Assembly (NCBI GenBank): GCA_964572255.1
Contig: CAZNEE010000001.1
Coordinates: forward strand, 267,587 to 331,586
DNA length: 64,000 bases
Source: an uncultured Planctomycetia bacterium
GTDB taxonomy: Bacteria; Omnitrophota; Gorgyraeia; Tantalellales; Tantalellaceae
Reading direction: 5' to 3'
The notes beneath the pieces were generated by a model. It ran no database searches. It was not told the DNA's origin and saw nothing but the letters and a program-made list of their open reading frames with translations. Every line of letters begins with the position of its first letter. The first letter of the stretch is position 1. The position numbers and the translations under genes were made by a program. This document shows positions 1 to 31,488 of this stretch, in pieces.

Positions 1-452
1 AGTTTCGCGAAGGAGATGGGAGTTCTTGGTCTCAGAACTCTTCTTATGGCACAAGTAAAGAGATTTCTGCCAAATATAGCGAAAAATGGAGAGAAGTTCT
101 GAATGAAGACCAAATAAAACTTATAGAGATGTTGTGTTGCCATGAAATGAAATTATTTGGATATGATCCTATTAATGAAGGTGTGGACATATTGTCAGAG
201 AAATATGTCTACGATCCTCTTATCGTTAAGCAGGAAGAACTAGCGGAATGGATCAAACAATATTCGGACACACGACCTATTTTTAATTTAATAGAAATGT
301 CTAAAGAATTAGTGAGAAATCGACTTATGCATATGGATGATAATGAGATAGTCCAACTAAAAGCCTCTAATGAAATTATTGAATCATTGTTCATTGATAG
401 ACAATATTTTAATTATGCTAGGAAATCTGTGTTTCAAGAGGAGAAGATATAG
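1..452 (+). CDS. 5'-truncated hypothetical protein; its C-terminal region resembles the C-terminus of sulfotransferase-family proteins
   Basis: The reading frame is open from the window edge to the stop at 450-452 (the ORF track starts at M129, but the upstream frame has no stop). The KWREVLNEDQIKLIEMLCCHEMKLFGY segment resembles sulfotransferase C-termini. Compared from memory only. Confidence 0.3.
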   Translation, partial: FREGDGSSWSQNSSYGTSKEISAKYSEKWREVLNEDQIKLIEMLCCHEMKLFGYDPINEGVDILSEKYVYDPLIVKQEELAEWIKQYSDTRPIFNLIEMSKELVRNRLMHMDDNEIVQLKASNEIIESLFIDRQYFNYARKSVFQEEKI

Positions 453-453
453 T

Positions 454-1746
454 ATGAAGATAATAAAGGAAAAGAATACCACCTTTGATGTAGATGGGAT
501 CAAAGAGTTTATCGAGAAATATGCGATGCTTAACCGAGTTGCTGTTTGTGACGAAACCAATGAGGTAGCCGAGGAGGTCGCCCAAAAACTTGGGGGAGAA
601 ATAATATCAATTCCGTCAGGCACAGAATGTCTTACATGGATTATCCCAAAACGCTGGCAAGTTAAAGAGGCGTATATTGAAACTATGGATGGTAAGAAAA
701 TCGTAGAATTTAAAGATAACCCCCTACATCTTTTTTCTTATTCAATTCCATTCGATGGGATCTTGACAAAAGAAGAGCTCGAAAACCATTTATTTTATGA
801 CAAAGAAAATCCAAAAAACATTCCTTATCATTATTCTTATCAATATGCTTTTGGACAGGAGGGTTGGGGATTTTGTCTTTCTTATGACGAATACAAACAA
901 ATGAATGATGAAAAGTATAGAGTTTTTATTGACAGTGACATTGATGACGGCGTTATGAAGATAACTGATTATTATATAAAAGGTGAGAGCGAAGAAACGA
1001 TATTAATAGCGGCACATAATTGCCATCCTGGATTAGTTAATGATGGCTTATCTTCTGTGGCAATTGCTTTGGAGCTATTTAAGTATTTAAAAACAAAAAA
1101 GAACAGATATTCCTATCGTTTGGTTATCGGACCGGAATTTTATGCGGCAGCAGGGTTTTTGGCTAGGGCACAGGATGTAGATAAAATCAAATATGGCATT
1201 TACCTTGATATGCTTGGCAACAATGAACATATGGGGCTTTCTCACTCATTTAAACAGGATACTTATATAGATAAAGTAATGAATAAGACAATTAGTGTTC
1301 ATGATAAAGGTTTTGTTAGTGCTTCTTATAGAGGGCTTAGCGGAAATGATGAGTTTTTTTACGATGGCCCAGATTTTTATATACCTATGGTTTGTTTAGG
1401 TAGATATGATTATTCAGAGTATCATTTAGATTCAGACAATATTGAAAATTGTGATTTTGTAGGACTTGAAAGACATTTTAACTTTTTAAAAGACGTGATC
1501 AGAGTTCTTGAGACTGACTTTGTGCCGGTTAGACAATATAAAGGACCTCTATATCTTAGTCGTTATGGTATCTCTAAGAATACTAAAGCTAATGTATCTC
1601 AAGCTATAGCTTTGGATAAGATACAGATATTAATGGATGGCAGACATTCATGTTTGGAAATAGCGGATAAGCTTGATGTGGAATATGATTTTGTTTATGG
1701 TTTTACGAAAAAACTTTTCGAAAAAGATTTGGTTAAAAAAATATAG
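454..1746 (+). CDS. DUF4910 / M28-peptidase-like domain protein of the kind found in polysaccharide loci
   Basis: The ORF track starts at 370 and overlaps the upstream gene; the in-frame ATG at 454 (MKIIKEK) follows the stop at 452. The AAHNCHPGLVNDGLSSVAIALE motif is typical of the DUF4910 aminopeptidase-like fold. A C-terminal winged-helix-like tail is present. Confidence 0.45.
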   Translation: MKIIKEKNTTFDVDGIKEFIEKYAMLNRVAVCDETNEVAEEVAQKLGGEIISIPSGTECLTWIIPKRWQVKEAYIETMDGKKIVEFKDNPLHLFSYSIPFDGILTKEELENHLFYDKENPKNIPYHYSYQYAFGQEGWGFCLSYDEYKQMNDEKYRVFIDSDIDDGVMKITDYYIKGESEETILIAAHNCHPGLVNDGLSSVAIALELFKYLKTKKNRYSYRLVIGPEFYAAAGFLARAQDVDKIKYGIYLDMLGNNEHMGLSHSFKQDTYIDKVMNKTISVHDKGFVSASYRGLSGNDEFFYDGPDFYIPMVCLGRYDYSEYHLDSDNIENCDFVGLERHFNFLKDVIRVLETDFVPVRQYKGPLYLSRYGISKNTKANVSQAIALDKIQILMDGRHSCLEIADKLDVEYDFVYGFTKKLFEKDLVKKI

Positions 1747-1762
1747 CAACAAAGAATAAAGT

Positions 1763-3238
1763 ATGATCGAAAAAAAGAAGACTATTTTAAAACACTTGCT
1801 TACTTATATGCCGGGTAGATATTTCTCTCAGTTTGTAGGATTTTTTATTGCGTTGTTCATGAAGAGATTTTTGGGGCCGTTTTACGCTGGGGTTTGGGCC
1901 CTATTGCGTGTCATTGAGAGGTATATTCGCTATCTGGAATTAGGGACTCCTGTTTCAGTTTTTTACAAACTTCCCTTTTTTATTGGGCAGGGCAAAAAAG
2001 AGGAAGCAGATGAAGTGAAGAATGTTGTTTTCAGTTTTCTCATGGTCGTTACTTTCATAGCAAGCTTGGGAGTCGCGTCTTATGCATTATGTTTTTCAAA
2101 ACACCTGTCGCATGAGATGTTCTGGGGATTGCTTGCAGTTTCAGTTATTTTAATATGCGAGAGGGTTTATAATTTTTATATTTTGCTTCTCAGGACAAAT
2201 AAAGATTATAACATACTTAGTAAATCGCTTTGCTTTGATGCAATTATCAATCTTTTACTAGTATTATTCGTTGTTAGTAGATTTAAACTATACGGGCTGT
2301 TCGTAGTTGTGATCATTCTTCCGATTTTGAATGTATTATTTATCAGACATTATGTTAAATACAATATTCGGTGGGTATTTAATTGGAGAAAAGCTTTTAC
2401 CTATGTTAAGTTCGGCCTGCCTATGTACTTATCCTCGATCTTATCTATGTTGTTAAATAGTGTAGACAGAATAATGGTGGTAAGTATGCTGGGATTTCAG
2501 CAGTTGGGATTTTATTCTATTGCGGTAATGGCAAAAAGTTATAGCGCACAATTGTCAACAAATTTCAGTCATGTGACAAGTCCTCATTTTATTGAAGATT
2601 TTGGGAAGGGTGACAAGAAAAGATTACCGTTATATGTTGTTGATGGTTCATTTTCAGTTTCTTGTTTTATGGCTATTATCTTAGGGGTTATATTTATATT
2701 TTCATTACCTATAATTAGATTGGTACTACCAGCCTTTGAACCGGGGTTAACGGCTTTAAGGATCTTTTTACTGACAAGTTTTTTTATGAGCCTGGCGTCA
2801 TTTCCTCAAGATTATATTGTAACCAGAGATAAGCAGATAATATTGTTACCTTTTATGTTTATAGCGTTAGCGATCAATGTTGCCTTAAATTATTATTTCA
2901 TTAAATCAGGCTTTGGAATAAACGGGGCAGCTACTGCGACAGCCATATCTTCCGGTTTTTATTTGTTATCCATATTTAGCTACGGCATGAGATATTTTGC
3001 AAATGTAAAGGGTATATTACAGTATATTTTTAAAATTTTTCTTCCATTAATATATCTATTAATAGTTGTTCTATTGCTAGAAAATTTCATAACTTATCCG
3101 GGTATTTGGTTAAATTCTTTTATAAAATCAGGCCTTTTCTTGATCGCGAGTATTGTTGTTGTGTTATTGCTGGAGAAGGAAACAGGGCTAGTCAGGATAT
3201 TAATAGGTTTACTTAAGGAAAAATTTAGTAGGAGCTGA
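1763..3238 (+). CDS. Wzx-like oligosaccharide/polysaccharide flippase (MOP superfamily membrane protein)
   Basis: 491 aa with roughly 12-14 hydrophobic helices. Size and topology match polysaccharide biosynthesis flippases, and the gene sits inside a glycan locus. Confidence 0.6.
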   Translation: MIEKKKTILKHLLTYMPGRYFSQFVGFFIALFMKRFLGPFYAGVWALLRVIERYIRYLELGTPVSVFYKLPFFIGQGKKEEADEVKNVVFSFLMVVTFIASLGVASYALCFSKHLSHEMFWGLLAVSVILICERVYNFYILLLRTNKDYNILSKSLCFDAIINLLLVLFVVSRFKLYGLFVVVIILPILNVLFIRHYVKYNIRWVFNWRKAFTYVKFGLPMYLSSILSMLLNSVDRIMVVSMLGFQQLGFYSIAVMAKSYSAQLSTNFSHVTSPHFIEDFGKGDKKRLPLYVVDGSFSVSCFMAIILGVIFIFSLPIIRLVLPAFEPGLTALRIFLLTSFFMSLASFPQDYIVTRDKQIILLPFMFIALAINVALNYYFIKSGFGINGAATATAISSGFYLLSIFSYGMRYFANVKGILQYIFKIFLPLIYLLIVVLLLENFITYPGIWLNSFIKSGLFLIASIVVVLLLEKETGLVRILIGLLKEKFSRS

Positions 3239-3239
3239 A

Positions 3240-4106
3240 ATGCTTCCCAATGTTTTAGTTATAGGAGCTCAAAAGGCGGCAACATCCTGGATCTATCAGT
3301 GTTTAAAGGAACATCCGGATGTATTTGTTCCTTTTGTCAAAGAACAACATTTTTTTGACCAGAATTATCATGAAGGATTGGAGTGGTATGAAAGGTATTT
3401 TAAAGGATATGGAAGTGAAAAAGCTATATGTGATGTAAGCCCGTCATATCTTAGTAGTGGTATTGCGCCTGAAAGAATAAAGAATGCTTTGGGAGATATA
3501 AAACTGATCGTGTGTTTAAGAAATCCGATTGATAGGGCTTTTTCCCAATATAAGATGCATTTGCGAAAAAAAACAGCTGATAAGCCTTTTGAAGAATTAT
3601 GGAGAAGGGATGAGAAAAGTGAATATGTGCAATTTGGTCGTTACTATACACATTTAGAACAATATTTAGAGTTTTTCCCCAAAGAAAATATATTAGTTTT
3701 AATATATGAAGATATACAAAATGATCCGATTAGCTTTATCCAAAGAATATATAGATTTATAGGCGTTGATGAAAACTTTAAGCCGAAAAGTGCGGATAAA
3801 ATTATTCCTCCCGAAAGCCTGGAATACGGATCATTTTATAAATTTGCAAAGAAATTAACATCTATTATCCGGAAATGGGGTATGGGCTCCCTAGTGGAAG
3901 CTGTTAAAAGATCAAAGGTCCAAGTTCTTTTAGATCGCATAATGATCAGATCTTCTCATGGTGAGAGAATCGATAACAAGGATCAAAAAGATGCAAAAAA
4001 AATGGAAATGGATCCCCAGACAAGGATTGAACTGCGGGAAGTTTTCAGCGATGAGATAAAAAAACTTTCAGAACTTATTGATAGAGACCTGAGTTTTTGG
4101 AAATAA
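3240..4106 (+). CDS. Sulfotransferase family protein (PAPS-dependent)
   Basis: The N-terminal 5'-PSB-like loop VIGAQKAATSW and the 3'-PB-like LRNPIDRAFSQY are present, with sulfotransferase-domain length. Confidence 0.7.
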   Translation: MLPNVLVIGAQKAATSWIYQCLKEHPDVFVPFVKEQHFFDQNYHEGLEWYERYFKGYGSEKAICDVSPSYLSSGIAPERIKNALGDIKLIVCLRNPIDRAFSQYKMHLRKKTADKPFEELWRRDEKSEYVQFGRYYTHLEQYLEFFPKENILVLIYEDIQNDPISFIQRIYRFIGVDENFKPKSADKIIPPESLEYGSFYKFAKKLTSIIRKWGMGSLVEAVKRSKVQVLLDRIMIRSSHGERIDNKDQKDAKKMEMDPQTRIELREVFSDEIKKLSELIDRDLSFWK

Positions 4107-4125
4107 AATGAAGCATGGAGGATAG

Positions 4126-4905
4126 GTGGAAGATATAAAAGAATTAAGAAAGATCTGCCAACTGCCGAGGAAGGCGTACGATACATGGTATGGTTTAAAT
4201 GTGTGCAGGAAAATTTCCATATACATAACAAGGGTTATACTTCCTTTTGGGGTTTCAGCTGATTTTGTTACTTTAATTTTCTTGGCAGTAGGTGTTTTAG
4301 CTTGTTTTTTCTTTGCAATAGGAACGAAGTTGTCTTTTTTAATTGGGATAATCGTTTTACAGCTATGGTACGTGTTGGATCACGTTGATGGAGAGGTTGC
4401 CAGGTACAGAAAATCTTCGTCTATTACCGGTGTATATTTTGATAAATTTGCTCATTACCTTGTACATCCGTCTGTTTTCTTCTGTCTGGGGTGGGGCGCA
4501 TATAAAAGTATGGGCATTCAATATGCTGTTATAGTTGGGTATATATCCGGGATCTCGAATATTTTAATATCTGCCACTGAGGATCTAAAGGAATCGACGA
4601 TTTTATCCAAGCTTATTAGAGATGGAAATACTGTGAATTTTGGTAAGGAAGAAGGGAAGAAGCCTGGCGAAGAAAAAAGTATTATCAAAATATTATTTTC
4701 AAGTATTCATAAGATATGTATTTTCCCGCAAGCGATGAACATAATTTCTTTAGCGGTTATACTTAATATATTAGGTTTCAAAAAAATTATTTTATGGGTT
4801 TTGTTTGTTTATGCGATACTCATGACATTGGTGTGGACTACCAGATTGATGCAGTTCGTACGCACAAAAAGGATAGATGCGGAATTGGGAGGATTATTAA
4901 AATGA
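4126..4905 (+). CDS. CDP-alcohol phosphatidyltransferase family membrane protein
   Basis: DHVDGEVAR...G...D matches the D-x2-D-G-x2-A-R core of the CDP-OH phosphotransferase motif. Several TM helices. RBS GGAGGATAGGTGG lies upstream. Confidence 0.55.
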   Translation: MEDIKELRKICQLPRKAYDTWYGLNVCRKISIYITRVILPFGVSADFVTLIFLAVGVLACFFFAIGTKLSFLIGIIVLQLWYVLDHVDGEVARYRKSSSITGVYFDKFAHYLVHPSVFFCLGWGAYKSMGIQYAVIVGYISGISNILISATEDLKESTILSKLIRDGNTVNFGKEEGKKPGEEKSIIKILFSSIHKICIFPQAMNIISLAVILNILGFKKIILWVLFVYAILMTLVWTTRLMQFVRTKRIDAELGGLLK

Positions 4906-5651
4906 TCATGCGCAGCAAGAGGGAAGAATTCTGGAAAACGCGGTCAAAAAATTATGAAAACCTGGAATGGGCAATAAAGGGCGGATATCTTCACGCTTTT
5001 CTGGATGCCGGGAGTTTCCATCCAGGGGATCATGTCCTGGATATAGGGACAGGTACGGGTATAATCAGCCATACAATTTCACCTTTCGTGGAAAAGGTTA
5101 TAGGAATAGATATTTCAGAGGATATGTTATCTCACGCTTTCGATCACAGGACTGACAATGAAGAGTTCTTAAAGATGGATGCTACTAATTTAGAATTTCA
5201 AGATGGGATTTTTTCCAAAGTAACAGCACGTATGGTTTTTCATCATATTCTCGATAATACGCAAAAAGCCATGGATGAATGTTACAGGGTTCTTAAACCC
5301 GGCGGTCAAATGATCTTTTCAGAAGGAGTGCCGCCGTCTGAAAATGTTAAACAGTTTTATACTGATATGTTCAAATTGAAGGAAGAGAGACTTACGTTCA
5401 TGGACAGCGATCTGATCGCGATCATGAGAAATGCCGGTTTTAAGAACATACAAGAAATCGTGTATTGGTCCAGAAAGTCAAGCATAAGAAATTGGCTGAT
5501 CAATTCCGGATTATCCGAAGACACGCAGGAAAACATTTTCAATATGCATCTTGAGCTTGAAGAAAAGGGTAAGCGCGATTATAACATGATCATTGAGAAC
5601 GGGGATTGTTTCATTGATATGAAATTTGTGATATTAGTTGGTGAAAAATGA
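4902..5651 (+). CDS. Class I SAM-dependent methyltransferase
   Basis: Start adjusted to the ATG that overlaps the upstream stop (ATGA). Motif I VLDIGTGTGIIS, plus LKPGG. Confidence 0.65.
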   Translation: MIMRSKREEFWKTRSKNYENLEWAIKGGYLHAFLDAGSFHPGDHVLDIGTGTGIISHTISPFVEKVIGIDISEDMLSHAFDHRTDNEEFLKMDATNLEFQDGIFSKVTARMVFHHILDNTQKAMDECYRVLKPGGQMIFSEGVPPSENVKQFYTDMFKLKEERLTFMDSDLIAIMRNAGFKNIQEIVYWSRKSSIRNWLINSGLSEDTQENIFNMHLELEEKGKRDYNMIIENGDCFIDMKFVILVGEK

Positions 5652-6550
5652 GAATAGAAATAATGGTGCTCAATTATAACGGCAAGGAGCTTTTAGCTGA
5701 ATGTTTGCCGAGTTTTGCTGAAGCGGTAAAAAACAGCAAAAACGAATGCACTTTATCCATAGTTGACAATAAAAGTGAGGATGGAAGTGTCGAGTTCTTA
5801 AAAGAGAAGTTCCCAGAATTTAATGTATATGTTACGGATGAGAATAGGGTACTATGTTCATTCAACGAAATGGTGGAGAATTCAAAAGCTGACATATTGA
5901 TCTTGATGAATAACGATATCAAGGTGGATAAGAACTTCATCGATCCGCTTGTTGAGCATTTTACAGATTCAAAAGTTTTTTATGCAGCGCCTAAGGTGCT
6001 TAATTTTGACGGTACGTTTAATGGGGGAAAGTCATACTTAAGCATGAAATATGGTATTATGAAAGTTAATATCGATAAAGAGACTTATGATGAACAGGGG
6101 ATCACTCACACAATAGGATGCGGTGCGTTCAGGAAAGATAATTTTCTAAAATTAGGCGGATACGATCCTATATATCTGCCGGGATACTGGGAAGATACTG
6201 ATATTTGTTACAGGGGATTAAAAGAGGGGTTAAAGGGGATATATGAGCCAAAAAGTATGATCTACCACAAGGAACATTCGAGTTTTTCAAAAAGCTTCTC
6301 ATGGTATAAAAAGATGTCGATAGTAGACAGGAACATGTTCATATTTATGTGGAAAAATATCAGCGATACTGCATTGTGGGCAAAACATATTATATTGGTT
6401 ATACCTCATGTGTTTGCTGCGGCCATTTGCGGAAGGTCACATTTACTTGTAGGATTTTTTAAGGCTTTATTTAAGATCCCTCAAATAATAAAAAGGCGCA
6501 AAGCAGCACAGAAAGTGTTTTCAGTGAAAGATAGAGATATTATTTCATAG
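5648..6550 (+). CDS. Glycosyltransferase family 2
   Basis: GT-A N-terminus (MVLNYNGKELLAECL...SIVDNKSEDGS) with an acidic motif region. ATGA overlap with the upstream gene. Confidence 0.65.
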   Translation: MRIEIMVLNYNGKELLAECLPSFAEAVKNSKNECTLSIVDNKSEDGSVEFLKEKFPEFNVYVTDENRVLCSFNEMVENSKADILILMNNDIKVDKNFIDPLVEHFTDSKVFYAAPKVLNFDGTFNGGKSYLSMKYGIMKVNIDKETYDEQGITHTIGCGAFRKDNFLKLGGYDPIYLPGYWEDTDICYRGLKEGLKGIYEPKSMIYHKEHSSFSKSFSWYKKMSIVDRNMFIFMWKNISDTALWAKHIILVIPHVFAAAICGRSHLLVGFFKALFKIPQIIKRRKAAQKVFSVKDRDIIS

Positions 6551-6564
6551 ATAAAGGGCTAAAA

Positions 6565-10922: not shown

Positions 10923-10934
10923 GAGGAGCGGATA

Positions 10935-11648: not shown

Positions 11649-11649
11649 C

Positions 11650-12585: not shown

Positions 12586-12591
12586 GAACAG

Positions 12592-14756: not shown

Positions 14757-14759
14757 AAA

Positions 14760-17669: not shown

Positions 17670-17687
17670 AAATATCTTACCAGGGGT

Positions 17688-17765
17688 AAGAATACAGTAT
17701 ATTTCCTACCAGGGCCCCTCCGCCCGGTGTGGATCCTCCCTGTACGGGAACATACTGTATTCTTA
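17688..17765 (+). other. 13-bp perfect inverted repeat (AAGAATACAGTAT / ATACTGTATTCTT) enclosing a GC-rich core of about 52 nt
   Basis: Read directly. Located in the 178-bp gap after the GT4 stop. The core contains a TACCAGGG repeat. No downstream T-run. Confidence 0.4.
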
Positions 17766-17810
17766 TACGCAGAACAAAATATTTTTATATGCGTCTAAAA
17801 CATTAACTAG

Positions 17811-17839
17811 TTTACGTGGCGGCCTTAAGTTTGTATAAT
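17811..17839 (+). promoter_or_regulatory. Candidate sigma70-type promoter (TTTACG-17-TATAAT) immediately upstream of the ATG at 17848
   Basis: Hexamers read from sequence. There is no Shine-Dalgarno between the -10 and the ATG, so the transcript would be leaderless or nearly so. Confidence 0.3.
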
Positions 17840-17847
17840 GTAATACT

Positions 17848-19005: not shown

Positions 19006-19026
19006 TTTACTTACCTTTTACTTAAA

Positions 19027-20421: not shown

Positions 20422-20433
20422 TTTGGCAAAATC

Positions 20434-23745: not shown

Positions 23746-25326
23746 ATGGCAAAGCCTCTGGTTAGCGCTGTCATAATAACAAAAAATGAGGAAGAAAATA
23801 TAGCCGATTGTCTTGAAAGTGTCTCCTGGGCCGGAGAGATCATTCTTGTCGATGATAACAGTACTGACAAGACAAGAGAGATCGCGAAGAAGTATACCGA
23901 TAAGATCTTTATCCGGAAGATGGAGAATGAAGGCAGACACAGGAACCGGGCATATGCACAGGCTTCCAATGATTGGATCTTAAGCGTAGACGCGGATGAA
24001 AGGGTGACGCCGGAACTTGCGCAGGAAATAACGGAGCTATTGAAAGGAAGACCGGAATATAAGGCGTATGCTATCCCGAGAAGGAATTGTATTGGCGATC
24101 ATTGGCTGAAATATGGAGGTGAATATCCCGCGCCCCAGACAAGATTATTCTTAAAAGATGAATTCAGGTACGAGGAGGCGGAGGTGCACCCCCGGGCACT
24201 CATGGAAGGGGATACGGGATATCTTAAAGGGGACCTTATTCACTATTCCCATCGGGATATTGAGGACTATGTCCGGAGCCTTGAAGGACATACGACACTT
24301 GAAGCTAAAAAATGGCATTCAAGCGGGCGAGAAATGAGTTTAGGGCGTGCGGTCTGGCGTGCTTTTGATAGGTGTTTTTACAGGCGTCTTTTGCGGAAAA
24401 AAGCGTATAAAGACGGGGTGTATGGCATAGTAGTTGCGGTGTTTAGTGGTATGTATCAGATATTGAGCTACGCTAAGTACTGGGCTAAGAAAAATAATCT
24501 GGAAGGGTTGAACGAGAAAGGACATCCCGCAAGGGAAGATAAACTGCCGCCTGAAGGCCGCAAGAAATTATCCGTAGTTATCATCGCTAAGAACGAGGAA
24601 GATAAAATACGGAATTGCCTCGAAAGTATCAAGTGGGTGGATGAGGTGGTGATCGTCGATGGCTTCAGCACTGATAAGACGGTAGAGATATGCGAAGAGT
24701 ATGGTGCCAAGGTCATTCAGCATAGATTTGAGGGGGATTTCGGCTTAGAGCGTAATATAGGAAACGAAAACTCATCAGGTGACTGGATCTTGCAGCTTGA
24801 CGCTGACGAAGTAGTTACGCAAGGTTTTAAGGATAAAATGGCAGAGATCCTTAAGGATGGGGATGAGTTTGCATCATATAAATTCCTTCGCAAAAACTCT
24901 TTTTTCGGGCATTTTATGATGCGGGGAGGATGGTACCATTATTCACATCATCTTTTCAAAAAGGGTTTTGCTCATTATGACGGGAAGGTACACCACCAGC
25001 TTATAGTAAACGGTAAAACAGGGTTATTGAAAGCTGATGTGGAACATTATCCTTTTCAGACTTTCAGTCAGCTCATCTCAAGACATAACCGTTATACAAC
25101 CCTTGAAGCCAAGGAGATCTTTGATCTGAGAGGCAGGATCAGTGAAAAAGAAGTACTGTATAACATAAAAGTGAAGCCTCTTAAACTTTTTTGGAAATTC
25201 TATGTCAAAAAGAAGGGCTTTACAGAAGGTACGCATGGAATCATCTTTTCAATATTTTTTGCTTGGGTGCATTTTCTGAAATGGGCGAAATATTGGGAAC
25301 TTTTGCAGGGGAAGAATGAAAGCTAA
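23746..25326 (+). CDS. Tandem double-domain glycosyltransferase family 2
   Basis: Two repeated GT-A modules: VSAVIITKNEEENIADCLESVSWAGEIILVDDNSTDKT and LSVVIIAKNEEDKIRNCLESIKWVDEVVIVDGFSTDKT. Confidence 0.7.
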   Translation: MAKPLVSAVIITKNEEENIADCLESVSWAGEIILVDDNSTDKTREIAKKYTDKIFIRKMENEGRHRNRAYAQASNDWILSVDADERVTPELAQEITELLKGRPEYKAYAIPRRNCIGDHWLKYGGEYPAPQTRLFLKDEFRYEEAEVHPRALMEGDTGYLKGDLIHYSHRDIEDYVRSLEGHTTLEAKKWHSSGREMSLGRAVWRAFDRCFYRRLLRKKAYKDGVYGIVVAVFSGMYQILSYAKYWAKKNNLEGLNEKGHPAREDKLPPEGRKKLSVVIIAKNEEDKIRNCLESIKWVDEVVIVDGFSTDKTVEICEEYGAKVIQHRFEGDFGLERNIGNENSSGDWILQLDADEVVTQGFKDKMAEILKDGDEFASYKFLRKNSFFGHFMMRGGWYHYSHHLFKKGFAHYDGKVHHQLIVNGKTGLLKADVEHYPFQTFSQLISRHNRYTTLEAKEIFDLRGRISEKEVLYNIKVKPLKLFWKFYVKKKGFTEGTHGIIFSIFFAWVHFLKWAKYWELLQGKNES

Positions 25327-26479
25327 ATGCGACATAATATTGCTTAGTTATGAAAGCCCGGAGCTTCTTAAAGAATGCGTTAAGAGCGTTCTTGAAAAGA
25401 CCAACGTTAATTCGCGGCTTATAATCGTGGACAACGCAAGCCGTGATCCTGAAGTCGCCAGGTATCTTCGCGAGGTTCACGGGAATGATACTGTTCAGAT
25501 CGAAAAAGTCTTCAGCGAAAGAAATGCGGGTTTTGCGGGAGGCATGAACAAGGGCATCAGGCTTTCCGATGCGCCTTATGTGTGTCTATTGAACAATGAT
25601 TGTGTCGTTACGAACGGATGGCTCAGGGAGATGATAAATATCGCTAAGTCGAGGAAGGACATAGGATTGGTTAACCCCCAGAGCAATACTTTTGGTTCAA
25701 AACCCAGAGAGGGCGTTTCTTTAGAAAAGCATGCTGAGACGCTTTCGGGAAGAAAAGGAAAGTTCGTTGAGCTCGGTCATGCGATCGGCTTTGCGTGTCT
25801 TGTAAAAAGAGAGGTAATAGACAAGATCGGGTATTTAGACGAAGCATACGAAGGCGTGTGTTATGAGGATACCGATTTTTCTGTCCGGGCCCAAAAGGTC
25901 GGGTATATTGCAGTCGCGGCCGAAGGGTCGTATGTTTTTCATCATGAACAATCTTCCAGAAAAGGCCTTAAGGGCAAAGAAATGATCTATAAGAAAAACA
26001 GAGAACTATTTGAAAAAAGATGGGGGAAGCTGTTAAGGGTTTTCTTCTTTGCCGATAGCTCTGTAAGCATGACCAATGGGGGCATCCTCGAATATTATGA
26101 GAATTTAAAAGACCTGGCCCGCCAAAGGGTCTTTATCGATCTATGGATAGAAAAGGATGAAACTGACAGGAACCTGTTCTTGGAGAAAGATTTCAAACCT
26201 GAAGTCAGCCATGCCGATATAGGGGTATATTTATTCGTAAACAAATGGATGTTTTTATCCGTATTATGGCGCGTTCTCACAAAAAAGAAAAAGTACGATG
26301 CGGTTATTCTTAAAGAGGGCAGACTTGCCGCTTTTTTAAGATTCTTGAGACCGATACACAGAGCGCAACTTTTTACCTTTGATGAAGGGACACGTCTCCA
26401 TGATCAGAAAGGGGAAAGGTTCGACCTTAAAGATCCCCTGGCATTGGCCGGTCACTTGAGAAAAATAAAGAAAAAATGA
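25316..26479 (+). CDS. Glycosyltransferase family 2
   Basis: DIILLSYESPELLKECVKSV...IIVDNASRD and CYEDTDFSVR motifs. Confidence 0.65.
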   Translation: MKAKCDIILLSYESPELLKECVKSVLEKTNVNSRLIIVDNASRDPEVARYLREVHGNDTVQIEKVFSERNAGFAGGMNKGIRLSDAPYVCLLNNDCVVTNGWLREMINIAKSRKDIGLVNPQSNTFGSKPREGVSLEKHAETLSGRKGKFVELGHAIGFACLVKREVIDKIGYLDEAYEGVCYEDTDFSVRAQKVGYIAVAAEGSYVFHHEQSSRKGLKGKEMIYKKNRELFEKRWGKLLRVFFFADSSVSMTNGGILEYYENLKDLARQRVFIDLWIEKDETDRNLFLEKDFKPEVSHADIGVYLFVNKWMFLSVLWRVLTKKKKYDAVILKEGRLAAFLRFLRPIHRAQLFTFDEGTRLHDQKGERFDLKDPLALAGHLRKIKKK

Positions 26480-26889
26480 AAAAGCAGCTTATATTTAAAA
26501 TAATACTTTCTGTATGGATCGTTCTTTGGATATTTTTCCTTGCACGGGAAGATAAGGACGGTCAATACAGGATGCTTAAATATTTTTATACGCATGATCC
26601 TCAAGAAAGGATACAGTATTTATTGGGGGATGATTTACATGATTTTCTTGTTTTTTGTAAAGCAAATATTTCTCATGGAGATGAATATGAGTTAATTGAT
26701 TTTGAGAATTCTTCGATAACACATGTAAGAGCAAGATATTTTTTATGGCCGCTGAAGAACCTTAAGGGAAATTCTGACTACAAGATTGTGTTGGACAAAA
26801 AGAATGTTGATATTCCAGGATACAGGGTTGTTAAACCAAAATCTGCTCTGCCCGGTTTATTGTTGATTAAAGAGGAGACAGGTAGATGA
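26476..26889 (+). CDS. Hypothetical protein with an N-terminal membrane anchor
   Basis: 137 aa with one N-terminal TM helix. ATGA-coupled to both neighbours. No recognisable domain. Confidence 0.4.
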   Translation: MKKQLIFKIILSVWIVLWIFFLAREDKDGQYRMLKYFYTHDPQERIQYLLGDDLHDFLVFCKANISHGDEYELIDFENSSITHVRARYFLWPLKNLKGNSDYKIVLDKKNVDIPGYRVVKPKSALPGLLLIKEETGR

Positions 26890-28271
26890 GCTTTATTCTT
26901 TCATTGTTTTTATTGTGGATAACCGGCGCTTTTCTTGTACTTTTTTTCGTAAAACGCCAACGCTACTGCTGCTCAATGTCAGAATTTTTGTCATTATCAT
27001 TTTTTCTGGGAACAGGCATAACGGTATATTATATGTTCATTTTCGGTCTTTTAGGGGTTAGTTATTGCATAAAAAATCTTTCCATCATCCCGGCAGCACT
27101 ATCTGTATTAATTTTGTCAAGGTACCTATTTAAGACGGGAAGAATCAGTGAGCCCGGCACAAGAGGTGTTCATAGTGAGCCCTGGAATTTAACAGAGAAA
27201 TTGCTGTTGACTGGAATAATCTTTCAGTTTTTATGGGTCATTTTTCTGGCTTTTCCAGTGCCTGTGCAGGCACACGATGCTGTTGCTAATTACGCTCTTA
27301 AGGCTAAGATTCTTTTCACTTTAAAAGGAAACTTTACCGAGATGTTTAGTCTAAGCGAAGATGCTGCGGGACACTTTGTTCATCCGCTATGGCTATCTGT
27401 GATTGTCAGCTGGGTAAATACTTTTACAGGAGGGGATGAATTTCTTGCTAACATGATAATGCCAACCATATATATTATGTTCGGAATTCTTCTATATTCT
27501 TTATTTAGGAAAATTTTTAACCGCGCTTATTCGCTGCTTCTATTGTTTGCATTTATTACAATTCATCAAATTTCAAATTATTCGGGGATAATTTATGCAG
27601 ACTTGCCGTTAACCGCATTTACAACATGCGCTTTCGTGTATTTCATACTTTATATTAAGAATGAGAACGAGACGCAAATGTTAATTTCATCTATACTGTT
27701 TGGGTTTTCATTGCTGATAAAGAACGAGGCGCTGATTTTTGTCGGCGGGTATTTATTTCTGTTTTTTATTTATGCCATAAAAAATAACGGGTTGAAGAGA
27801 AAGCTGATTTTCAGAAATTTAATTAGCGCAATTGCTGTAATATTGGCTATAAATGTTCCGTGGCTTATCATAAAAATAGTGCATGGCATCAGCAATCAAT
27901 ATATAGGGCTTACGGGATTAACCGCAGATAAATTTTTTGAGAACGTAAGACACATTCCGGTTCTCTTGAATTCGTTTCAACAAGAAGTTTTTGGTCCCAA
28001 AAAGTGGAATATCTTCTGGATACTTGTAATAGCAGGGGGGATATGGAAGAGGAGAATGCTGTGGAAGGACGAAATTTTCTACATAACATTATATTTAGTT
28101 ATTCTGATGGCTGGGTATGTCGCGGGATATATGGTTGTTAAAGTTCATAATTTATATTTTTACATAAACACGACTCTATCGCGGTTTATGATACATTTTT
28201 CAGGGATAACTTTGCTGCTTTTAGCTTTTTTATCAGCCAAGGACATTCGCGAACTTGAAAGTTTCAAATGA
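26886..28271 (+). CDS. Polytopic membrane protein, candidate GT-C-fold glycosyltransferase
   Basis: 461 aa with 11-13 TM helices. Sits immediately upstream of a GtrB/ArnC-like GT2. Confidence 0.35.
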   Translation: MSFILSLFLLWITGAFLVLFFVKRQRYCCSMSEFLSLSFFLGTGITVYYMFIFGLLGVSYCIKNLSIIPAALSVLILSRYLFKTGRISEPGTRGVHSEPWNLTEKLLLTGIIFQFLWVIFLAFPVPVQAHDAVANYALKAKILFTLKGNFTEMFSLSEDAAGHFVHPLWLSVIVSWVNTFTGGDEFLANMIMPTIYIMFGILLYSLFRKIFNRAYSLLLLFAFITIHQISNYSGIIYADLPLTAFTTCAFVYFILYIKNENETQMLISSILFGFSLLIKNEALIFVGGYLFLFFIYAIKNNGLKRKLIFRNLISAIAVILAINVPWLIIKIVHGISNQYIGLTGLTADKFFENVRHIPVLLNSFQQEVFGPKKWNIFWILVIAGGIWKRRMLWKDEIFYITLYLVILMAGYVAGYMVVKVHNLYFYINTTLSRFMIHFSGITLLLLAFLSAKDIRELESFK

Positions 28272-28341
28272 TTAAATTGATGTTTTTTTGGCGAAAATGC
28301 GGAAGTTATGTTTGCCAAAATAAAAGGAAAGGAGAGGCAGA

Positions 28342-29715
28342 GTGAAGCTCTCAGTGGTAATGCCGGTATATAATGAGGTTAATACTTTTCTTGAGATCTT
28401 CAGGCAGGTAAAAGAATACCCTATGGAGAAAGAAATAATTATTGTTGACGATTTCTCCACTGACGGAACAAGGGAGATCTTGGAAAAGGTTAATGACGAT
28501 AATGTGCAGATATTGTTTAATGAAAAAAATTATGGAAAGGGATTTTGTGTCCGAAGAGGTTTTGATCTGGCAAAAGGCGATATTGTTATTATCCAGGATA
28601 CAGACCTTGAATATTATCCCTCCGAGTATTCGATCTTAATAAAAAGAATATTAGAAGGTAAAGCCGATGTGGTATATGGAACGAGATTTTTAGGGGAACA
28701 TAGAGTGTTCTTTTTCTCTCATTTTTTGGGAAATTTTATATTAAATAATATCGCAAACATTCTTTACAATACTAATTTGACCGATCTCATGACTGGCTAT
28801 AAGGTATTTACAAGGGACGCAATCGATAAACTTAATTTGCATGCAAACGGATTTGGCGTAGAAGCGGAGATAACCGCTCAAGTTTTTAAACATAATCTAA
28901 GGGTTTATGAGGTGCCGATTTCTTACAATGGAAGAAATTATGATGAGGGGAAGAAAATAACGTGGAAGGATTTCTTCCGTTCGTTATACTGGCTGTTTAG
29001 ATGCAGATTTGCCAGTTATGACATTGGCAAGGATACTTTGTCCAGGATGCGGGTTATGAAGAATAACAATAGATGGCTTTTTAACCAGATAAAACCGTAC
29101 ATAGGCGACCGCGTTCTGGAGATAGGTTCCGGTATCGGCAATATTTCAGCTTTACTTTCCAGCCTTAAAAAGAAATTAATCTTAACAGAGATAAATGAAC
29201 ATTACGTGGATTATTTAAGGCAGAGATTTATTGGAAATCCTTCTATAGAAGTTTTCCGAAAGGATGTAACATCGAATGATTTTCTCGATCTAAGAAATTT
29301 TAACACTGATACCGCGGTATGCATAAACGTATTAGAGCATATCAAGGACGATAACAAAGCATTAGAAAATATATATCACACAATAGAATTAGATGGAAAA
29401 CTTATATTAGTTGTTCCTGCGCTTAAACCTCTCTATGGCTCAATTGATAAAGGGTTGGATCATTTTAGAAGGTATAGCAGAACAGACTTGAAGGATAAGT
29501 TGGAATCCAAGGGATTTATTGTAGAAGAAATGTTTTATCATAATTTTCTATCCGCTATTGGATGGTTTGTTAACGGTAGAATTTTAAAGAAAAAGATCAT
29601 TTCAAGTGTTCAAGTAAAAATATTGGATTTATTCATCCCAATTATTGCAGCAATAGAGAGAAGGATAAAAGTCCCTCTTGGCTTATCCCTGATTGTTGTT
29701 TGTAGAAAAAAATAA
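28342..29715 (+). CDS. Fusion protein: GT2 polyprenol-phosphate glycosyltransferase (DPM1/GtrB-like) at the N-terminus and a class I SAM methyltransferase at the C-terminus
   Basis: GTG start after the RBS AAGGAAAGGAGAGG. LSVVMPVYNE...IIVDDFSTDGT...IQDTDLEY at the N-terminus. VLEIGSGIGNIS and a LILVVP segment at the C-terminus. Confidence 0.65.
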   Translation: MKLSVVMPVYNEVNTFLEIFRQVKEYPMEKEIIIVDDFSTDGTREILEKVNDDNVQILFNEKNYGKGFCVRRGFDLAKGDIVIIQDTDLEYYPSEYSILIKRILEGKADVVYGTRFLGEHRVFFFSHFLGNFILNNIANILYNTNLTDLMTGYKVFTRDAIDKLNLHANGFGVEAEITAQVFKHNLRVYEVPISYNGRNYDEGKKITWKDFFRSLYWLFRCRFASYDIGKDTLSRMRVMKNNNRWLFNQIKPYIGDRVLEIGSGIGNISALLSSLKKKLILTEINEHYVDYLRQRFIGNPSIEVFRKDVTSNDFLDLRNFNTDTAVCINVLEHIKDDNKALENIYHTIELDGKLILVVPALKPLYGSIDKGLDHFRRYSRTDLKDKLESKGFIVEEMFYHNFLSAIGWFVNGRILKKKIISSVQVKILDLFIPIIAAIERRIKVPLGLSLIVVCRKK

Positions 29716-29767
29716 TTATTAGCAATTTATTGATTATTAAAAATCAGAAGCGAGGTAAAGGGCTGGT

Positions 29768-30331
29768 ATGAAGCAGAAATATATATTTCTTGATCGTGAC
29801 GGAGTGATAAATAAAGACGGTGAGTTCATAACCGAACACGGGTACATAACACGCTGGGAGGATTTTCAGTTCCTTCCCGGGGTTTTGGAAGGCATAAAGA
29901 GACTTACAGAAGAAGGATATAAGGTCATAGTCATATCAAATCAGAAATGTGTCGGAAAAGGCATCATGTCCGAGGAAGAGCTGAAAAGTTTAACGGAAGA
30001 GTTTTCTAAAGCTGTTGAAAAGAGCGGCGGGAAGATAGAGAAGGTCTATTATTGCCTTCATGTGGACGAAGATAAATGCGACTGCCGTAAACCCGAAGCG
30101 GGTTTGTTCCATAAGGCACAGGAGGAATTTAATATAGATACTTTTGAGAATAAATTTTTTATTGGTGACAGCCAGCGCGACATGCAGGCCGGACAAAGAG
30201 TAGGCCTTAAGACCGTGCTTGTCTTGTCCGGAAAATCTTCAAGGAAAGATGCCGAAGCCTGGCAGTACAAGCCGGATCACATATGCGAAACTTTCCGGGA
30301 TGTGGTGGATCTCGTTTTAAAGGGAGCGTAA
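29768..30331 (+). CDS. gmhB: D-glycero-D-manno-heptose 1,7-bisphosphate 7-phosphatase (HAD-IIIA)
   Basis: FLDRDGVIN HAD motif I and VISNQ, plus the Zn-binding C-x-H...C-x-C (CLHVDEDKCDCRKP) typical of GmhB. Confidence 0.8.
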   Translation: MKQKYIFLDRDGVINKDGEFITEHGYITRWEDFQFLPGVLEGIKRLTEEGYKVIVISNQKCVGKGIMSEEELKSLTEEFSKAVEKSGGKIEKVYYCLHVDEDKCDCRKPEAGLFHKAQEEFNIDTFENKFFIGDSQRDMQAGQRVGLKTVLVLSGKSSRKDAEAWQYKPDHICETFRDVVDLVLKGA

Positions 30332-30336
30332 AGTAC

Positions 30337-31488
30337 ATGGCAACAAAGAAGAAAAAAAAGATCATTATTCTTTATTCGACCGGCGGCTTGGGGCACAAGA
30401 AAGCGGCTGATGCTATCTTCGATGCGTTCGGTAAGAGAAAAAAAGACGCCGCGGTCGAGATGATCGATGTCATTGAATACGCCAACCGGTTCTACAAATT
30501 CATATATAAGGATTTTTATGTATTTCTCATGTCGAAAGGGAAATTGTTCTGGGGGTTCTTATATTATTTTTCCAATTTGGCCTTCATGGATGCGCTCACC
30601 CGCAAAATACGCCAGATCATAGACCTGAGAAGTCTCGGCGGGCTGAAAGACATGCTGGTTCAAAAGGCCCCCGATGCGATCGTTACCACGCATTTCCTTC
30701 TGCCGAGCATAGCCGGCGTCCTGAAAAAAGACAAAACGTTCCATGCCAGGTTATATACCGTTATAACTGATTACGGGCCCCATGCTTTCTGGCTCACAAA
30801 ATACATGGATAAGTTTTTTGTAGGCACGGAGTCAGTTATACGCGAGATGAAAAAAAGAAAGATCCCCGAGAGCAAGATCTCGGCAACTGGTATTCCCGCG
30901 ATGAAAGAATTCAGTAAGAAATTCAGTGTAAGCAGGCTGCAAAAAGAATATGGACTCGATAAAAAGAGGAAAACGGTCCTCGTTCTAAGCGGGGGATTCG
31001 GAGTGGGGCCTTTAGAGAAGATACTTTTTTCGCTCAATGCGTGCACTGCTGACATTCAGGTAATTACTGTATGCGGGCATAACAAGGCCGCATATAATGA
31101 TATAAACGCTATTAGAGATAAATTAAATTATCCCGTGATCCTTTTTGGGTTTACTGATGAGGTCGCTCAGCTCATGTCGGTTTCTGATCTCATAATAACA
31201 AAAGCCGGAGGGATAAGCGTGACGGAAGCTTTGGATTCAAGTCTTCCCATGATACTTTTCGCGTCCATACCCGGACAGGAAACGTGGAATGAGAACCTTC
31301 TTTTGGATGCGGGGGCGGCGGAGAAGGCGCATTCCGTCAAGGAGATACCGGTTATTGCCAACCGGATACTTTTGTCGGAAGATGTTTATGAAGCTTTGAA
31401 AGAAGGGATAGAAAAGGTGCGTAAGCCCGATGCGGCCGGGAGGATAGTTGATATTGTTCTGGAAGAGATAAAAGAAGCGGGAAAATGA
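30337..31488 (+). CDS. GT28 MGDG-synthase-like diacylglycerol glycosyltransferase family protein
   Basis: Start adjusted to the ATG after the gmhB stop, with RBS AAAGGGAGCG. IIILYSTGGLGHKKAADAI matches the MGDG_synth N-terminal region. MurG-like C-terminal half. Confidence 0.55.
   Translation: MATKKKKKIIILYSTGGLGHKKAADAIFDAFGKRKKDAAVEMIDVIEYANRFYKFIYKDFYVFLMSKGKLFWGFLYYFSNLAFMDALTRKIRQIIDLRSLGGLKDMLVQKAPDAIVTTHFLLPSIAGVLKKDKTFHARLYTVITDYGPHAFWLTKYMDKFFVGTESVIREMKKRKIPESKISATGIPAMKEFSKKFSVSRLQKEYGLDKKRKTVLVLSGGFGVGPLEKILFSLNACTADIQVITVCGHNKAAYNDINAIRDKLNYPVILFGFTDEVAQLMSVSDLIITKAGGISVTEALDSSLPMILFASIPGQETWNENLLLDAGAAEKAHSVKEIPVIANRILLSEDVYEALKEGIEKVRKPDAAGRIVDIVLEEIKEAGK

Follow-up and report, generated by a model that had tools for sequence, protein, structure and literature searches.

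In enterobacteria, genes of the lipopolysaccharide (LPS) core region follow the arrangement waaF-waaC-waaL. Glycan loci that also carry sulfotransferases have been described in several bacteria. The capsular polysaccharide/O-antigen locus of Vibrio sp. KMM 8419 comprises 80 genes, including three sulfotransferases and its own cysNDC, and the occurrence together of sulfotransferase genes and genes for the sulfate donor 3'-phosphoadenosine-5'-phosphosulfate (PAPS) was called a hallmark of such loci by its authors; one of these sulfotransferases, encoded beside the flippase gene wzx, is the predicted O-antigen sulfotransferase, and the authors suspect horizontal acquisition (PMC11641403). The xss (synechan) cluster of Synechocystis sp. 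PCC 6803 is a Wzx/Wzy cluster that combines eight glycosyltransferases with two sulfotransferases of distinct subfamilies (PMC8205485), while LpsS of Sinorhizobium meliloti is cited as an enzyme that sulfates LPS directly (PMC12445080). Here we describe a locus that brings together features of these systems in an uncultured bacterium of the Omnitrophota, on a 64-kb stretch of contig CAZNEE010000001.1 (assembly GCA_964572255.1, positions 267,587 to 331,586 of the forward strand), hereafter the window. The first 31,488 nucleotides of the window carry 31 glycan-assembly genes on one strand, nearly every one backed by Pfam and NCBIfam profile searches, and the locus includes three sulfotransferases, which we call ST0, ST1 and ST2. 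With moderate confidence, we interpret it as a composite envelope-glycan supercluster, in which an LPS-core-like block is joined to a variable low-GC (guanine plus cytosine) cassette for a sulfated, methylated outer glycan containing pseudaminic acid.

Like the Vibrio locus, this one is very large and has three sulfotransferases interspersed among glycosyltransferases, one of them adjoining wzx. Unlike that locus, for which cysNDC, a Kps ABC-transporter route and a solved glycan structure are on record, it is described from its genes, has no PAPS genes in the roughly 92 kb read and has no Kps genes. With xss it shares the combination of sulfotransferases with cytoplasmic repeat-unit assembly, as well as the lack of PAPS genes in the cluster; xss, however, is plasmid-borne, has its own regulators, Wzy and polysaccharide copolymerase, yields a free exopolysaccharide, and is without GT9 (glycosyltransferase family 9), heptose, pseudaminic acid or methyltransferase genes. 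With LpsS there is precedent for a soluble PAPS-dependent enzyme that sulfates LPS directly, although it is encoded by a single Stf0-family gene outside a glycan cluster and the enzymes found here belong to other subfamilies. Given these loci and the large families to which ST1 and ST2 belong, the statement in our first-pass annotation of this DNA that bacterial glycan sulfation is rare was overstated. The locus is thus an unusual and rich example of an already known type, and not a new kind of system.

The DNA on either side of the window was read by walking via identical proteins on the 526,884-bp source metagenome contig, which encodes a protein identical to ST1 (ENA ERZ27256770; also JGI 3300029267 and Logan assemblies); this yielded stretches upstream (L006 and L061) and past the window end (L064), so that the span read runs from window -19 kb to +73 kb (about 92 kb). 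The supercluster has its left limit at window -19 kb or beyond and reaches at least +31.5 kb, and therefore exceeds 50 kb. All annotated open reading frames (ORFs) of at least 120 aa within 1-31488 lie on the + strand; since the entire 64-kb window is + stranded, this co-directionality is not diagnostic of the locus. GC skew is positive across the whole window, in which every annotated gene is on the + strand, and cumulative skew rises monotonically, as fits a long leading-strand stretch.

Base composition divides the supercluster in two. A low-GC island of about 24 kb reaches from the PseB-like gene, at window position about -11.4 kb, to the end of the flippase-like gene at 12585, with per-gene GC of 0.31-0.39 and an exception in the methyltransferase gene MT_b (0.417). 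From 12592 on, gene GC is 0.41-0.47 (0.41-0.45 for the GT9, GmhB and Wzy_C genes). Averaged over genes, GC is 0.352 in the island (24 genes) and 0.436 in the backbone (19 genes; Mann-Whitney p=4e-8), and the right edge is sharp, GC being 0.36 in the flippase-like gene (11614-12585) as against 0.435 in the next gene. Every one of the three sulfotransferase genes is in the island, as are the wzx gene, the genes for pseudaminic acid, five methyltransferase genes, GT2_a, GT4_a, the first GT-C gene and the CDP-alcohol transferase-like and flippase-like genes (gene labels as in Table 1). GT4_b, WecB, GT2_b, GT9_a, GT4_c, GT4_d, the initiating transferase, the Wzy_C gene, all three GT9 genes and GmhB have backbone composition. 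By analogy, the island looks like a strain-variable cassette of the O-antigen/capsule type; an O-antigen/capsule cassette that is hyper-variable and includes heptosyltransferase II and an O-antigen ligase has been reported in Omnitrophota (preprint, 10.64898/2026.05.20.726742). A second, short low-GC patch (26476-29715) covers the genes for a 137-aa protein, a PMT_2 protein and a GT2-methyltransferase fusion, the last with a GC of 0.348. Exactly at the left edge of the island, at about -11.6 kb, we also noted a 79-aa HTH_17 (excisionase/MerR-type) gene with a backbone-like GC of 0.446 (L061:7585-7824); no integrase or tRNA gene was seen near it. As the window has no tRNA genes, the island is without a tRNA-type integration site on the window side.

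The three sulfotransferases differ in how readily they are recognized. Full-length ST0, of which only the C-terminus lies in the window, scores 70.4 bits against Sulfotransfer_3 (gathering threshold, GA, 27) and 52.6 bits against Sulfotransfer_1 (GA 22), and has the motifs GMFRSGTTLL (5'-phosphosulfate-binding, 5'-PSB) and IIRDPRAVCAS (3'-phosphate-binding, 3'-PB); its PDB matches are weak and are to tyrosylprotein sulfotransferase (TPST) and to the CurM/OLS sulfotransferases. ST1 matches the bacterial sulfotransferase 3rnl (2e-30) and heparan sulfate 3-O-sulfotransferases (3-OSTs; about 6e-24), and, when aligned to the 3-OST motifs, keeps the 5'-PSB loop (IGAQKAATS) with its lysine and threonine and the 3'-PB motif (LRNPIDRAFS) with its R...S; its family has more than 400 database relatives. 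In ST2 we identified the motifs SLGRTGT and IIRDPRDWVAS, and an alignment of 39 homologues shows S11, G13-T17, H35, E36, R138 and S146 to be invariant. A phmmer search of the PDB with ST2 gave no match, whereas the family profile found only sulfotransferases as its top, though weak, PDB matches, and the profile alignment places E36 within the TPST stretch that contains the catalytic glutamate. An AlphaFold 2 model of ST2 (predicted local distance difference test, pLDDT, 89.3) was compared with the PDB using Foldseek: 17 of the 18 matches at E<=1e-3 were sulfotransferases, with TPST2 the best (6.9e-6), followed by 3rnl and the CurM sulfotransferase, and with TPST1 and the OLS and schistosome sulfotransferases also among them. 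The conserved PAPS-binding motifs, the family alignment and the predicted fold thus support the assignment of ST2 as a putative PAPS-type sulfotransferase. Nor is its family tiny: among 1.84 billion representatives, 299 clusters (at 50% identity) match at E<=1e-30 and 1553 at E<=1e-10.

Because pairwise identities among ST0, ST1 and ST2 do not exceed 25%, and this over partial lengths, the three represent separate subfamilies (3-OST-like, TPST/CurM-like and one divergent family) and not recent duplicates. None of them has a hydrophobic segment, which fits an action in the cytoplasm with PAPS. The first-pass annotation had named two clear sulfotransferases and a possible third at the window start: the third is borne out as the C-terminus of the 402-aa ST0, and ST1 is indeed clear, but ST2 is not clear by hidden Markov model (HMM) and owes its assignment to motifs, alignment and fold, so that two of the three (ST0 and ST1) pass the Pfam Sulfotransfer models and ST2 fails. 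Since these credible PAPS-type enzymes stand together with several methyltransferases that use S-adenosylmethionine (SAM), a sulfated and O-methylated surface glycan, as first proposed, remains the best prediction, here from an LPS-type locus.

The pathway for pseudaminic acid, absent from the first-pass annotation, adjoins the window upstream and lies within the same low-GC island. PseG, PseH and PseI pass their NCBIfam equivalog cutoffs (157.8 vs 153.55, 153.4 vs 93.1 and 477.5 vs 340.25, respectively), the PseB-like protein matches Polysacc_synt_2 at 4e-102, and the DegT protein fits PseC at the family level. These genes and that of a cytidylyltransferase are contiguous, and recall the PseB-C-H-G-I-F pathway known from Campylobacter/Helicobacter flagellin and from O-antigens and capsules. 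Unlike in that pathway, the cytidylyltransferase is of SpsF type, resembles SpsF and KdsB and scores far under the PseF model (25.6 vs 205.7), and genes for a methyltransferase, WbqC and a PIG-L deacetylase interleave the pathway, which suggests a modified derivative of pseudaminic acid. Pseudaminic acid, an acidic sugar, probably characterises the product as much as sulfate does. No recognisable pseudaminic acid transferase was found among the genes read. By its position between PseI and ST0, a 636-aa ORF is a candidate for the transferase of the pseudaminic acid derivative. At another locus (L062), a 60%-identical ST1 homologue directly follows a wzx gene, with genes for a PIG-L protein, a methyltransferase and a NeuB-type synthase upstream; since ST1 and its homologue keep the same company, the association of Wzx, ST1 and nonulosonate genes recurs. 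The possibility that the 636-aa ORF is a pseudaminic acid transferase common to both loci was rejected, as it shares no similarity with the 576-aa ORF occupying the corresponding position in L062. Further upstream lie three GT-C genes of the PMT/PMT_2 type.

The normal-GC part of the locus (about 12.6-32 kb) has a different history in the phylum. PriA, encoded just beyond it, is 66-78% identical to that of about 25 Candidatus Omnitrophota metagenome-assembled genomes (MAGs), including Ca. Tantalella remota. When the window proteins were compared by tblastn with the priA loci of these Omnitrophota relatives, for which flanks reach 10 kb upstream of priA, an ordered block was found at 38-72% identity in many MAGs, running from Wzy_C through priA and on to fmt and gap, in the order Wzy_C, GT2_b, GT9_b, GT9_c, double GT2, GT2_c, 137-aa protein, PMT_2, GmhB, GT28-like, UDG, priA; in the window the shared part stretches from Wzy_C/GT9 to priA (about 20.4-32 kb). 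The Wzy_C gene lies immediately upstream of a GT9 gene in two relatives (L013 and L020), and three others (L014, L024 and L025) keep GT9_b with a 63-72% identical GT2_b adjoining it. GT9_c is 55-64% identical in nine Omnitrophota priA loci and GT2_c 54-62% in nine relatives, and the tandem double GT2 was found in L020, L027 and L031. The 137-aa protein (41-54% identical in 10 relatives) is each time encoded upstream of the PMT_2 gene, whose product is 38-47% identical, while GmhB is kept in 16 relatives, adjoining the gene for the GT28-like protein, which is itself 50-61% identical in 18. None of the compared relatives has the GT2-methyltransferase fusion between PMT_2 and GmhB; it occurs in this genome only and is a strain-specific low-GC insertion. 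Only L011 and L017 have a homologue of the methyltransferase at 32217-33134 between the GT28-like gene and UDG, and no sulfotransferase homologue was detected within 10 kb upstream of the relatives' priA genes.

Within this block, GT9_b passes the heptosyltransferase II model TIGR02195 (161.3 vs 134.6 bits), and its closest solved relative is E. coli WaaF (PDB 1psw, 2e-20). The succession Wzy_C-GT9-GT9 with GmhB nearby resembles the waaF-waaC-waaL region, or more fully the enterobacterial waa operon (gmhD-waaF-waaC-waaL), in that adjoining GT9 genes, one of them WaaF-like, stand by genes for a Wzy_C protein and GmhB. From its gene families, the conserved block looks like an LPS inner-core/ligase region that uses heptose. 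The low-GC variable cassette, with its Wzx, initiating transferase, sugar-nucleotide synthesis and decorating enzymes, is in turn like the O-antigen (rfb) cluster that lies beside waa. Unlike in the enterobacterial waa/rfb case, the core and variable parts are contiguous here in one tract of more than 50 kb, no Kdo (3-deoxy-D-manno-oct-2-ulosonic acid) transferase, HldD/HldE or Wzz was seen, GT-C and GT28-like enzymes are embedded, and membership of LPS is predicted.

We infer the acceptors, the order of steps and the identity of the product as LPS from these families and their arrangement. The WcaJ-type transferase would start a repeat unit on polyprenyl phosphate, which GT4 and GT2 enzymes would extend using, among others, UDP-ManNAc supplied by WecB and CMP-pseudaminic acid or a derivative of it. 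On the cytoplasmic face, ST0, ST1 and ST2 would O-sulfate the unit with PAPS and the methyltransferases would O-methylate it with SAM, after which Wzx would flip the decorated unit. The Wzy_C protein would then ligate it to a heptose core built by the conserved GT9 enzymes or, less likely, polymerise it or transfer it to protein. Polyprenyl-phosphate sugars made by GT2 enzymes (GT2_b and the N-terminal half of the fusion) might allow the GT-C enzymes to add outer-face residues. The genes concerned are listed in Table 1.

Table 1. Genes of the supercluster, from the most distal upstream gene read to the end of the locus. Positions are those of the window unless a stretch (L006, L061) is named; matches in bits are given against the gathering threshold (GA) or cutoff.
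Feature	Position	Strand	Evidence
Distal genes: PMT-type GT-C (partial), YfhO, PMT-type GT-C, GT2, PMT-type GT-C	L061:1-7441 (about -19.2 to -11.8 kb)
Then HTH_17 protein, PseB-like dehydratase, DegT aminotransferase (PseC-like), SpsF-type cytidylyltransferase
Then methyltransferase, PseG, second methyltransferase, WbqC, PIG-L deacetylase, PseH, PseI, 636-aa ORF, ST0
636-aa ORF between PseI and ST0	L006:6884-8794 (window about -2663 to -753)		no Pfam, NCBIfam or PDB match
ST0, C-terminal 149 codons	3..452	+	end of 402-aa protein, start 756 bp upstream of window (L006:8791-9999)
DUF4910/DUF2172/M28 aminopeptidase-like	454..1746	+	Pfam 2.8e-50 and 1.4e-31; PDB 3k9t 'putative peptidase' 1.1e-53
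Wzx-type lipid-linked oligosaccharide flippase	1763..3238	+	Polysacc_synt_3 2.5e-12, 47.1 bits vs GA 23; polytopic, about 9 hydrophobic segments
ST1, carbohydrate-type PAPS sulfotransferase	3240..4106	+	Sulfotransfer_1 8.9e-28, 97.8 bits vs GA 22
CDP-alcohol phosphotransferase-like membrane protein	4126..4905	+	CDP-OH_P_transf 7e-08, 33.4 bits vs GA 22; NCBIfam weak
MT_a, class I SAM methyltransferase	4902..5651	+	Methyltransf_11 2.6e-22; start per public gene call
GT2_a, GT2 glycosyltransferase	5648..6550	+	Glycos_transf_2 3.8e-13
GT4_a, GT4 glycosyltransferase	6565..7680	+	Glycos_transf_1 2.3e-33
GTC_a, GT-C-like polytopic membrane glycosyltransferase	7673..9241	+	PMT 2.1e-4, under GA; LA_3751/LA_3752 family 7.2e-15, under cutoff; about 10 hydrophobic segments
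MT_b, class I SAM methyltransferase	9241..10005	+	Methyltransf_11 6e-27
ST2, divergent sulfotransferase-fold protein (putative)	10002..10922	+	motifs, family alignment, predicted fold
MT_c, class I SAM methyltransferase	10935..11648	+	Methyltransf_12 4.6e-13, NodS 9.8e-9
LPG_synthase_TM flippase-like membrane protein	11614..12585	+	PF03706 4.4e-23; TIGR00374 flippase-like domain under cutoff
GT4_b, GT4 glycosyltransferase	12592..13644	+	Glycos_transf_1 5.2e-18
WecB, non-hydrolysing UDP-GlcNAc 2-epimerase supplying UDP-ManNAc	13641..14756	+	Epimerase_2 1.2e-107; TIGR00236 436.5 bits vs 210.15
GT2_b, short GT2, polyprenyl-phosphate sugar synthase-like	14760..15446	+	Glycos_transf_2 3.3e-33; top NCBIfam matches AglJ, PpgS, dolichyl-P hexose transferase and ArnC, all under cutoff
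GT9_a, GT9 glycosyltransferase	15476..16567	+	Glyco_transf_9 1.2e-33
GT4_c, GT4 glycosyltransferase	16590..17669	+	Glycos_transf_1 2.1e-31
GT4_d, GT4 glycosyltransferase	17848..19005	+	Glycos_transf_1 3.6e-21
Initiating polyprenyl-phosphate hexose-1-phosphate transferase, WbaP/WcaJ type	19027..20421	+	Bac_transf 7.5e-71 plus CoA_binding_3; TIGR03025 470.8 bits vs 295.55; TIGR03023 (WcaJ-type) 458.6 vs 410.75
Wzy_C-family membrane protein	20434..21636	+	Wzy_C 3.3e-28; about 10 hydrophobic segments
GT9_b, heptosyltransferase II (WaaF)-like	21623..22669	+	Glyco_transf_9 4.9e-43
GT9_c, second core GT9	22666..23745	+	Glyco_transf_9 3.9e-27
Tandem double GT2	23746..25326	+	Glycos_transf_2 1.5e-45 across two stretches
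GT2_c, GT2 glycosyltransferase	25316..26479	+	Glycos_transf_2 1.1e-21
137-aa protein, one N-terminal hydrophobic segment	26476..26889	+	no Pfam/NCBIfam match
PMT_2-type GT-C membrane glycosyltransferase (ArnT/PMT superfamily)	26886..28271	+	PMT_2 2.3e-8, 34.9 bits vs GA 26.1; about 11 hydrophobic segments
GT2-methyltransferase fusion	28342..29715	+	Glycos_transf_2 9.8e-31 plus Methyltransf_12/11; N-terminal half AglJ/PpgS/ArnC-like (NCBIfam)
GmhB, D-glycero-beta-D-manno-heptose 1,7-bisphosphate 7-phosphatase	29768..30331	+	NF006506 178.9 bits vs cutoff 178, a bare pass
GT28/MGDG-synthase-like (diglucosyl-diacylglycerol-synthase-like)	30283..31488	+	MGDG_synth 1.6e-26, Glyco_tran_28_C 1.7e-9; NF010135 211 bits, under cutoff
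Class I methyltransferase, optional, right outside 1-31488	32217..33134	+	weak methyltransferase matches only

The picture of a very large glycan locus with about 30 co-directional genes that continues upstream, drawn in the first-pass annotation, stands: nearly all of the calls among the 31 genes agree with HMM searches, and the source contig adds at least 19 kb upstream. The Wzx-like flippase, WbaP-type initiator, O-antigen-ligase-family protein, WecB, GmhB and three GT9 proteins named there are likewise supported by their family matches. Some of its counts need revision. Glycos_transf_1 domains occur in four proteins and not in five, the supposed fifth GT4 being the GT28/MGDG-synthase-like protein; the tandem GT2 holds, but GT2 domains are found in five proteins instead of four, among them the fusion; and of the five or six SAM methyltransferases, four (MT_a, MT_b, MT_c and the fusion) lie inside 1-31488, a fifth being encoded just outside it. 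Two GT-C proteins, the LPG_synthase_TM flippase-like protein, the CDP-alcohol phosphotransferase-like protein and the DUF4910/M28-like protein had not been listed at all. For the last of these we follow the public gene call, which begins at 454, and have dropped an earlier start at 370 (370-1746). From its sequence, the CDP-alcohol phosphotransferase-like protein is a possible transferase of a phospho-alcohol substituent. GT2_c, the 137-aa protein and the PMT_2 protein were considered as a GtrB/GtrA/GtrC-like trio, and this was rejected because GtrA has four hydrophobic segments and the 137-aa protein a single one, while GT2_c lacks any. Across the supercluster there are at least six GT-C-type enzymes including YfhO (two in the window, and three of PMT type plus YfhO upstream) and at least seven methyltransferase domains.

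Judging from its family and its neighbours, the Wzy_C protein is most likely a WaaL-type ligase. It has no PDB sequence match, and no model or structure match separates ligase, polymerase and O-oligosaccharyltransferase for this protein; the domain is in fact common to all three. This leaves room for an explanation that we think unlikely, in which the product would be a capsule/exopolysaccharide or a protein O-glycan, the Wzy_C protein would act as a polymerase or as a PglL-type O-oligosaccharyltransferase, and acceptors of the PEP-CTERM/S-layer type would be possible. In favour of it, the best NCBIfam matches of the Wzy_C protein are to the IctB family and to 'O-glycosylation ligase, exosortase A system-associated', both under cutoff, and the initiating transferase also matches the XrtA/PEP-CTERM-system transferase family (302 bits, under cutoff). 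The many PMT-type GT-C enzymes point the same way, and in Campylobacter and Helicobacter pseudaminic acid classically serves in protein glycosylation. Within the window, two ORFs behind cyclic di-GMP (c-di-GMP) riboswitches have PEP-CTERM-like ends; these, however, score under the Pfam gathering score and lie 18 kb away from the locus. The kept adjacency of Wzy_C with a WaaF-like GT9 and GmhB is the LPS-core pattern, and the region has no Wza, Wzc or Wzz export genes, both of which argue against a capsule or protein glycan.

The first-pass annotation had gone further than a sulfated glycan, seeing one dedicated pathway whose sulfotransferases act on heptose structures and whose product is a heptose-based glycan or glycolipid, heavily sulfated and O-methylated. 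The genes are indeed contiguous and co-directional and include three GT9s and GmhB. Yet co-directionality is a property of the whole 64-kb window; the GT9/GmhB genes lie in the normal-GC block and the sulfotransferases in the low-GC island, two compositionally distinct segments; and the GT9_b/GT9_c/GmhB block is syntenic in many relatives, with no sulfotransferase detected in the 10 kb upstream of their priA. Homologues of ST1 and ST2 are in addition found elsewhere without GT9 genes. Heptose and sulfate are thus better seen as juxtaposed modules, and a single pathway appears improbable. In favour of the single-pathway proposal, GT9_a lies among GT4 genes and the initiator and outside the block shared with relatives, so that transfer of a heptose-like residue into the outer glycan is possible.

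The surroundings of the ST2 homologues bear on what this divergent family acts upon. These homologues always lie among GT2 and GT4 genes, often with additional sulfotransferases and a Wzx, and an LPG_synthase_TM gene is close to ST2 or its homologue in four of six contexts (the window, L057, L058 and L063). An orthologous conserved module of ST2, flippase-like protein and GT4/GT2 was considered and rejected, because in tblastn comparisons between the contexts the neighbours were not detectably orthologous; the association therefore holds at the family level only. One locus in an Anaerolineales MAG (L059) and one on an unassigned contig (L060) each have about five sulfotransferase-like genes by GT2, GT4 and Wzx genes, and since ST2-homologue contexts carry several such genes, multi-sulfotransferase glycan loci are recurrent in uncultured bacteria. 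Among the sulfotransferase-family genes of these two loci (ST2 homologues P0192 and P0175) is one for an 870-aa GT2 protein with a faint Sulfotransfer_1 match. Near a 42%-identical ST1 homologue, we also observed a 639-aa GT4 protein with a faint Sulfotransfer_3 match (L056:1-502), which may be a glycosyltransferase-sulfotransferase fusion. That one or more of the sulfotransferases, ST2 above all, act on a glycolipid or polyprenyl-phosphate sugar instead of a Wzx-dependent unit, giving a sulfoglycolipid or a GT-C-delivered sulfated side-branch, strikes us as very doubtful: the recurrence of LPG_synthase_TM and of GT4 or GT2 genes beside ST2 homologues, the PMT-type GT-C genes in the same gene run in the window and L057, and the glycolipid-type GT28/MGDG-synthase-like enzyme kept in the locus would fit it, but the link to the neighbours does not extend beyond families and we know of no precedent for sulfation of polyprenyl-phosphate sugars.

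Several observations weigh against the composite LPS-core and cassette interpretation itself. Genes for PAPS synthesis (ATP sulfurylase and APS kinase) were not found in the roughly 92 kb read, nor was cysN, cysD or cysC in the cluster or the approximately 40 kb downstream, and the same 92 kb showed no gmhA, hldE or hldD and neither a Kdo transferase nor lipid A genes. From window -19 kb to +32 kb there is no family match to Wzz, Wzc or Wza, and just one Wzy_C protein; the missing polymerase and chain-length genes may be located elsewhere, or the glycan may be unpolymerised. GT9_a and GT9_c fall under every curated heptosyltransferase cutoff, the former matching heptosyltransferase III/RfaQ best (134.5 vs 170.2) and the latter reaching 110 vs 134.6. 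ST2 scores under Pfam gathering (20.9 bits vs GA 27 for Sulfotransfer_3, and 17.2 vs 22 for the other model), and its TM-scores to solved sulfotransferases are just about 0.4-0.55. The island is taken to be variable on the strength of its composition and by analogy, and the relatives' 10-kb flanks stop short of it.

Downstream of the locus the genes are of the housekeeping and biosynthesis type, with priA, fmt, gap, pgk, tpi, secG and an Opp/Nik-type ABC transporter, and further on leuCDB, asd, truA, rplM, rpsI, argCJBDFGH, lysA and dapF. Between truA and rplM we noted two c-di-GMP-I riboswitch aptamers (RF01051) on the + strand, at 49532-49615 and 50531-50617, scoring 48.7 and 57.5 bits where the gathering score is 35. 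One small + strand ORF lies behind each aptamer (49727-50290 and 50710-51552), and the C-termini of both are PEP-CTERM-like, at 19.8 and 18.5 bits, slightly under the Pfam score of 20.7; this suggests that they may be c-di-GMP-controlled exosortase substrates. A Y1_Tnp (IS200/IS605-type) transposase gene lies on the opposite strand about 6.8 kb past the window end (L064:16801-17391), among biosynthetic genes.

Omnitrophota are uncultured and mostly ultra-small, and many are thought to depend on a host or prey (PMC10066038). Our literature searches found no paper on Omnitrophota envelope glycan chemistry, none describing their LPS and none linking Omnitrophota to sulfotransferases. Conceivably, the island gives these possibly host-dependent bacteria a strain-variable, strongly anionic outer glycan with three distinct sulfations, pseudaminic acid and O-methyl groups, which would serve attachment to host or prey or evasion of phage. 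Part of its sulfate might come by an undescribed route, in which ST2 would modify a lipid-phosphate-linked sugar, the LPG_synthase_TM protein would translocate it and a GT-C enzyme would transfer it outside the cytoplasm; as a whole, we hold this proposal to be a long shot. For enzymology, the locus lengthens the short list of candidate polysaccharide sulfotransferases from bacteria, enzymes of biotechnological interest, by three subfamilies; one of these, that of ST2, is missed by Pfam thresholds despite its 299 clusters. Work with lectin or antibody probes, 35S labelling and metagenomic analysis of strain variation gains concrete targets from it as well. For the Omnitrophota, the composite interpretation leads one to expect, in at least one lineage, an LPS-core-like heptose region kept across its relatives, along with an exchangeable cassette whose product would be a highly anionic outer glycan with sulfate, pseudaminic acid and methyl groups.

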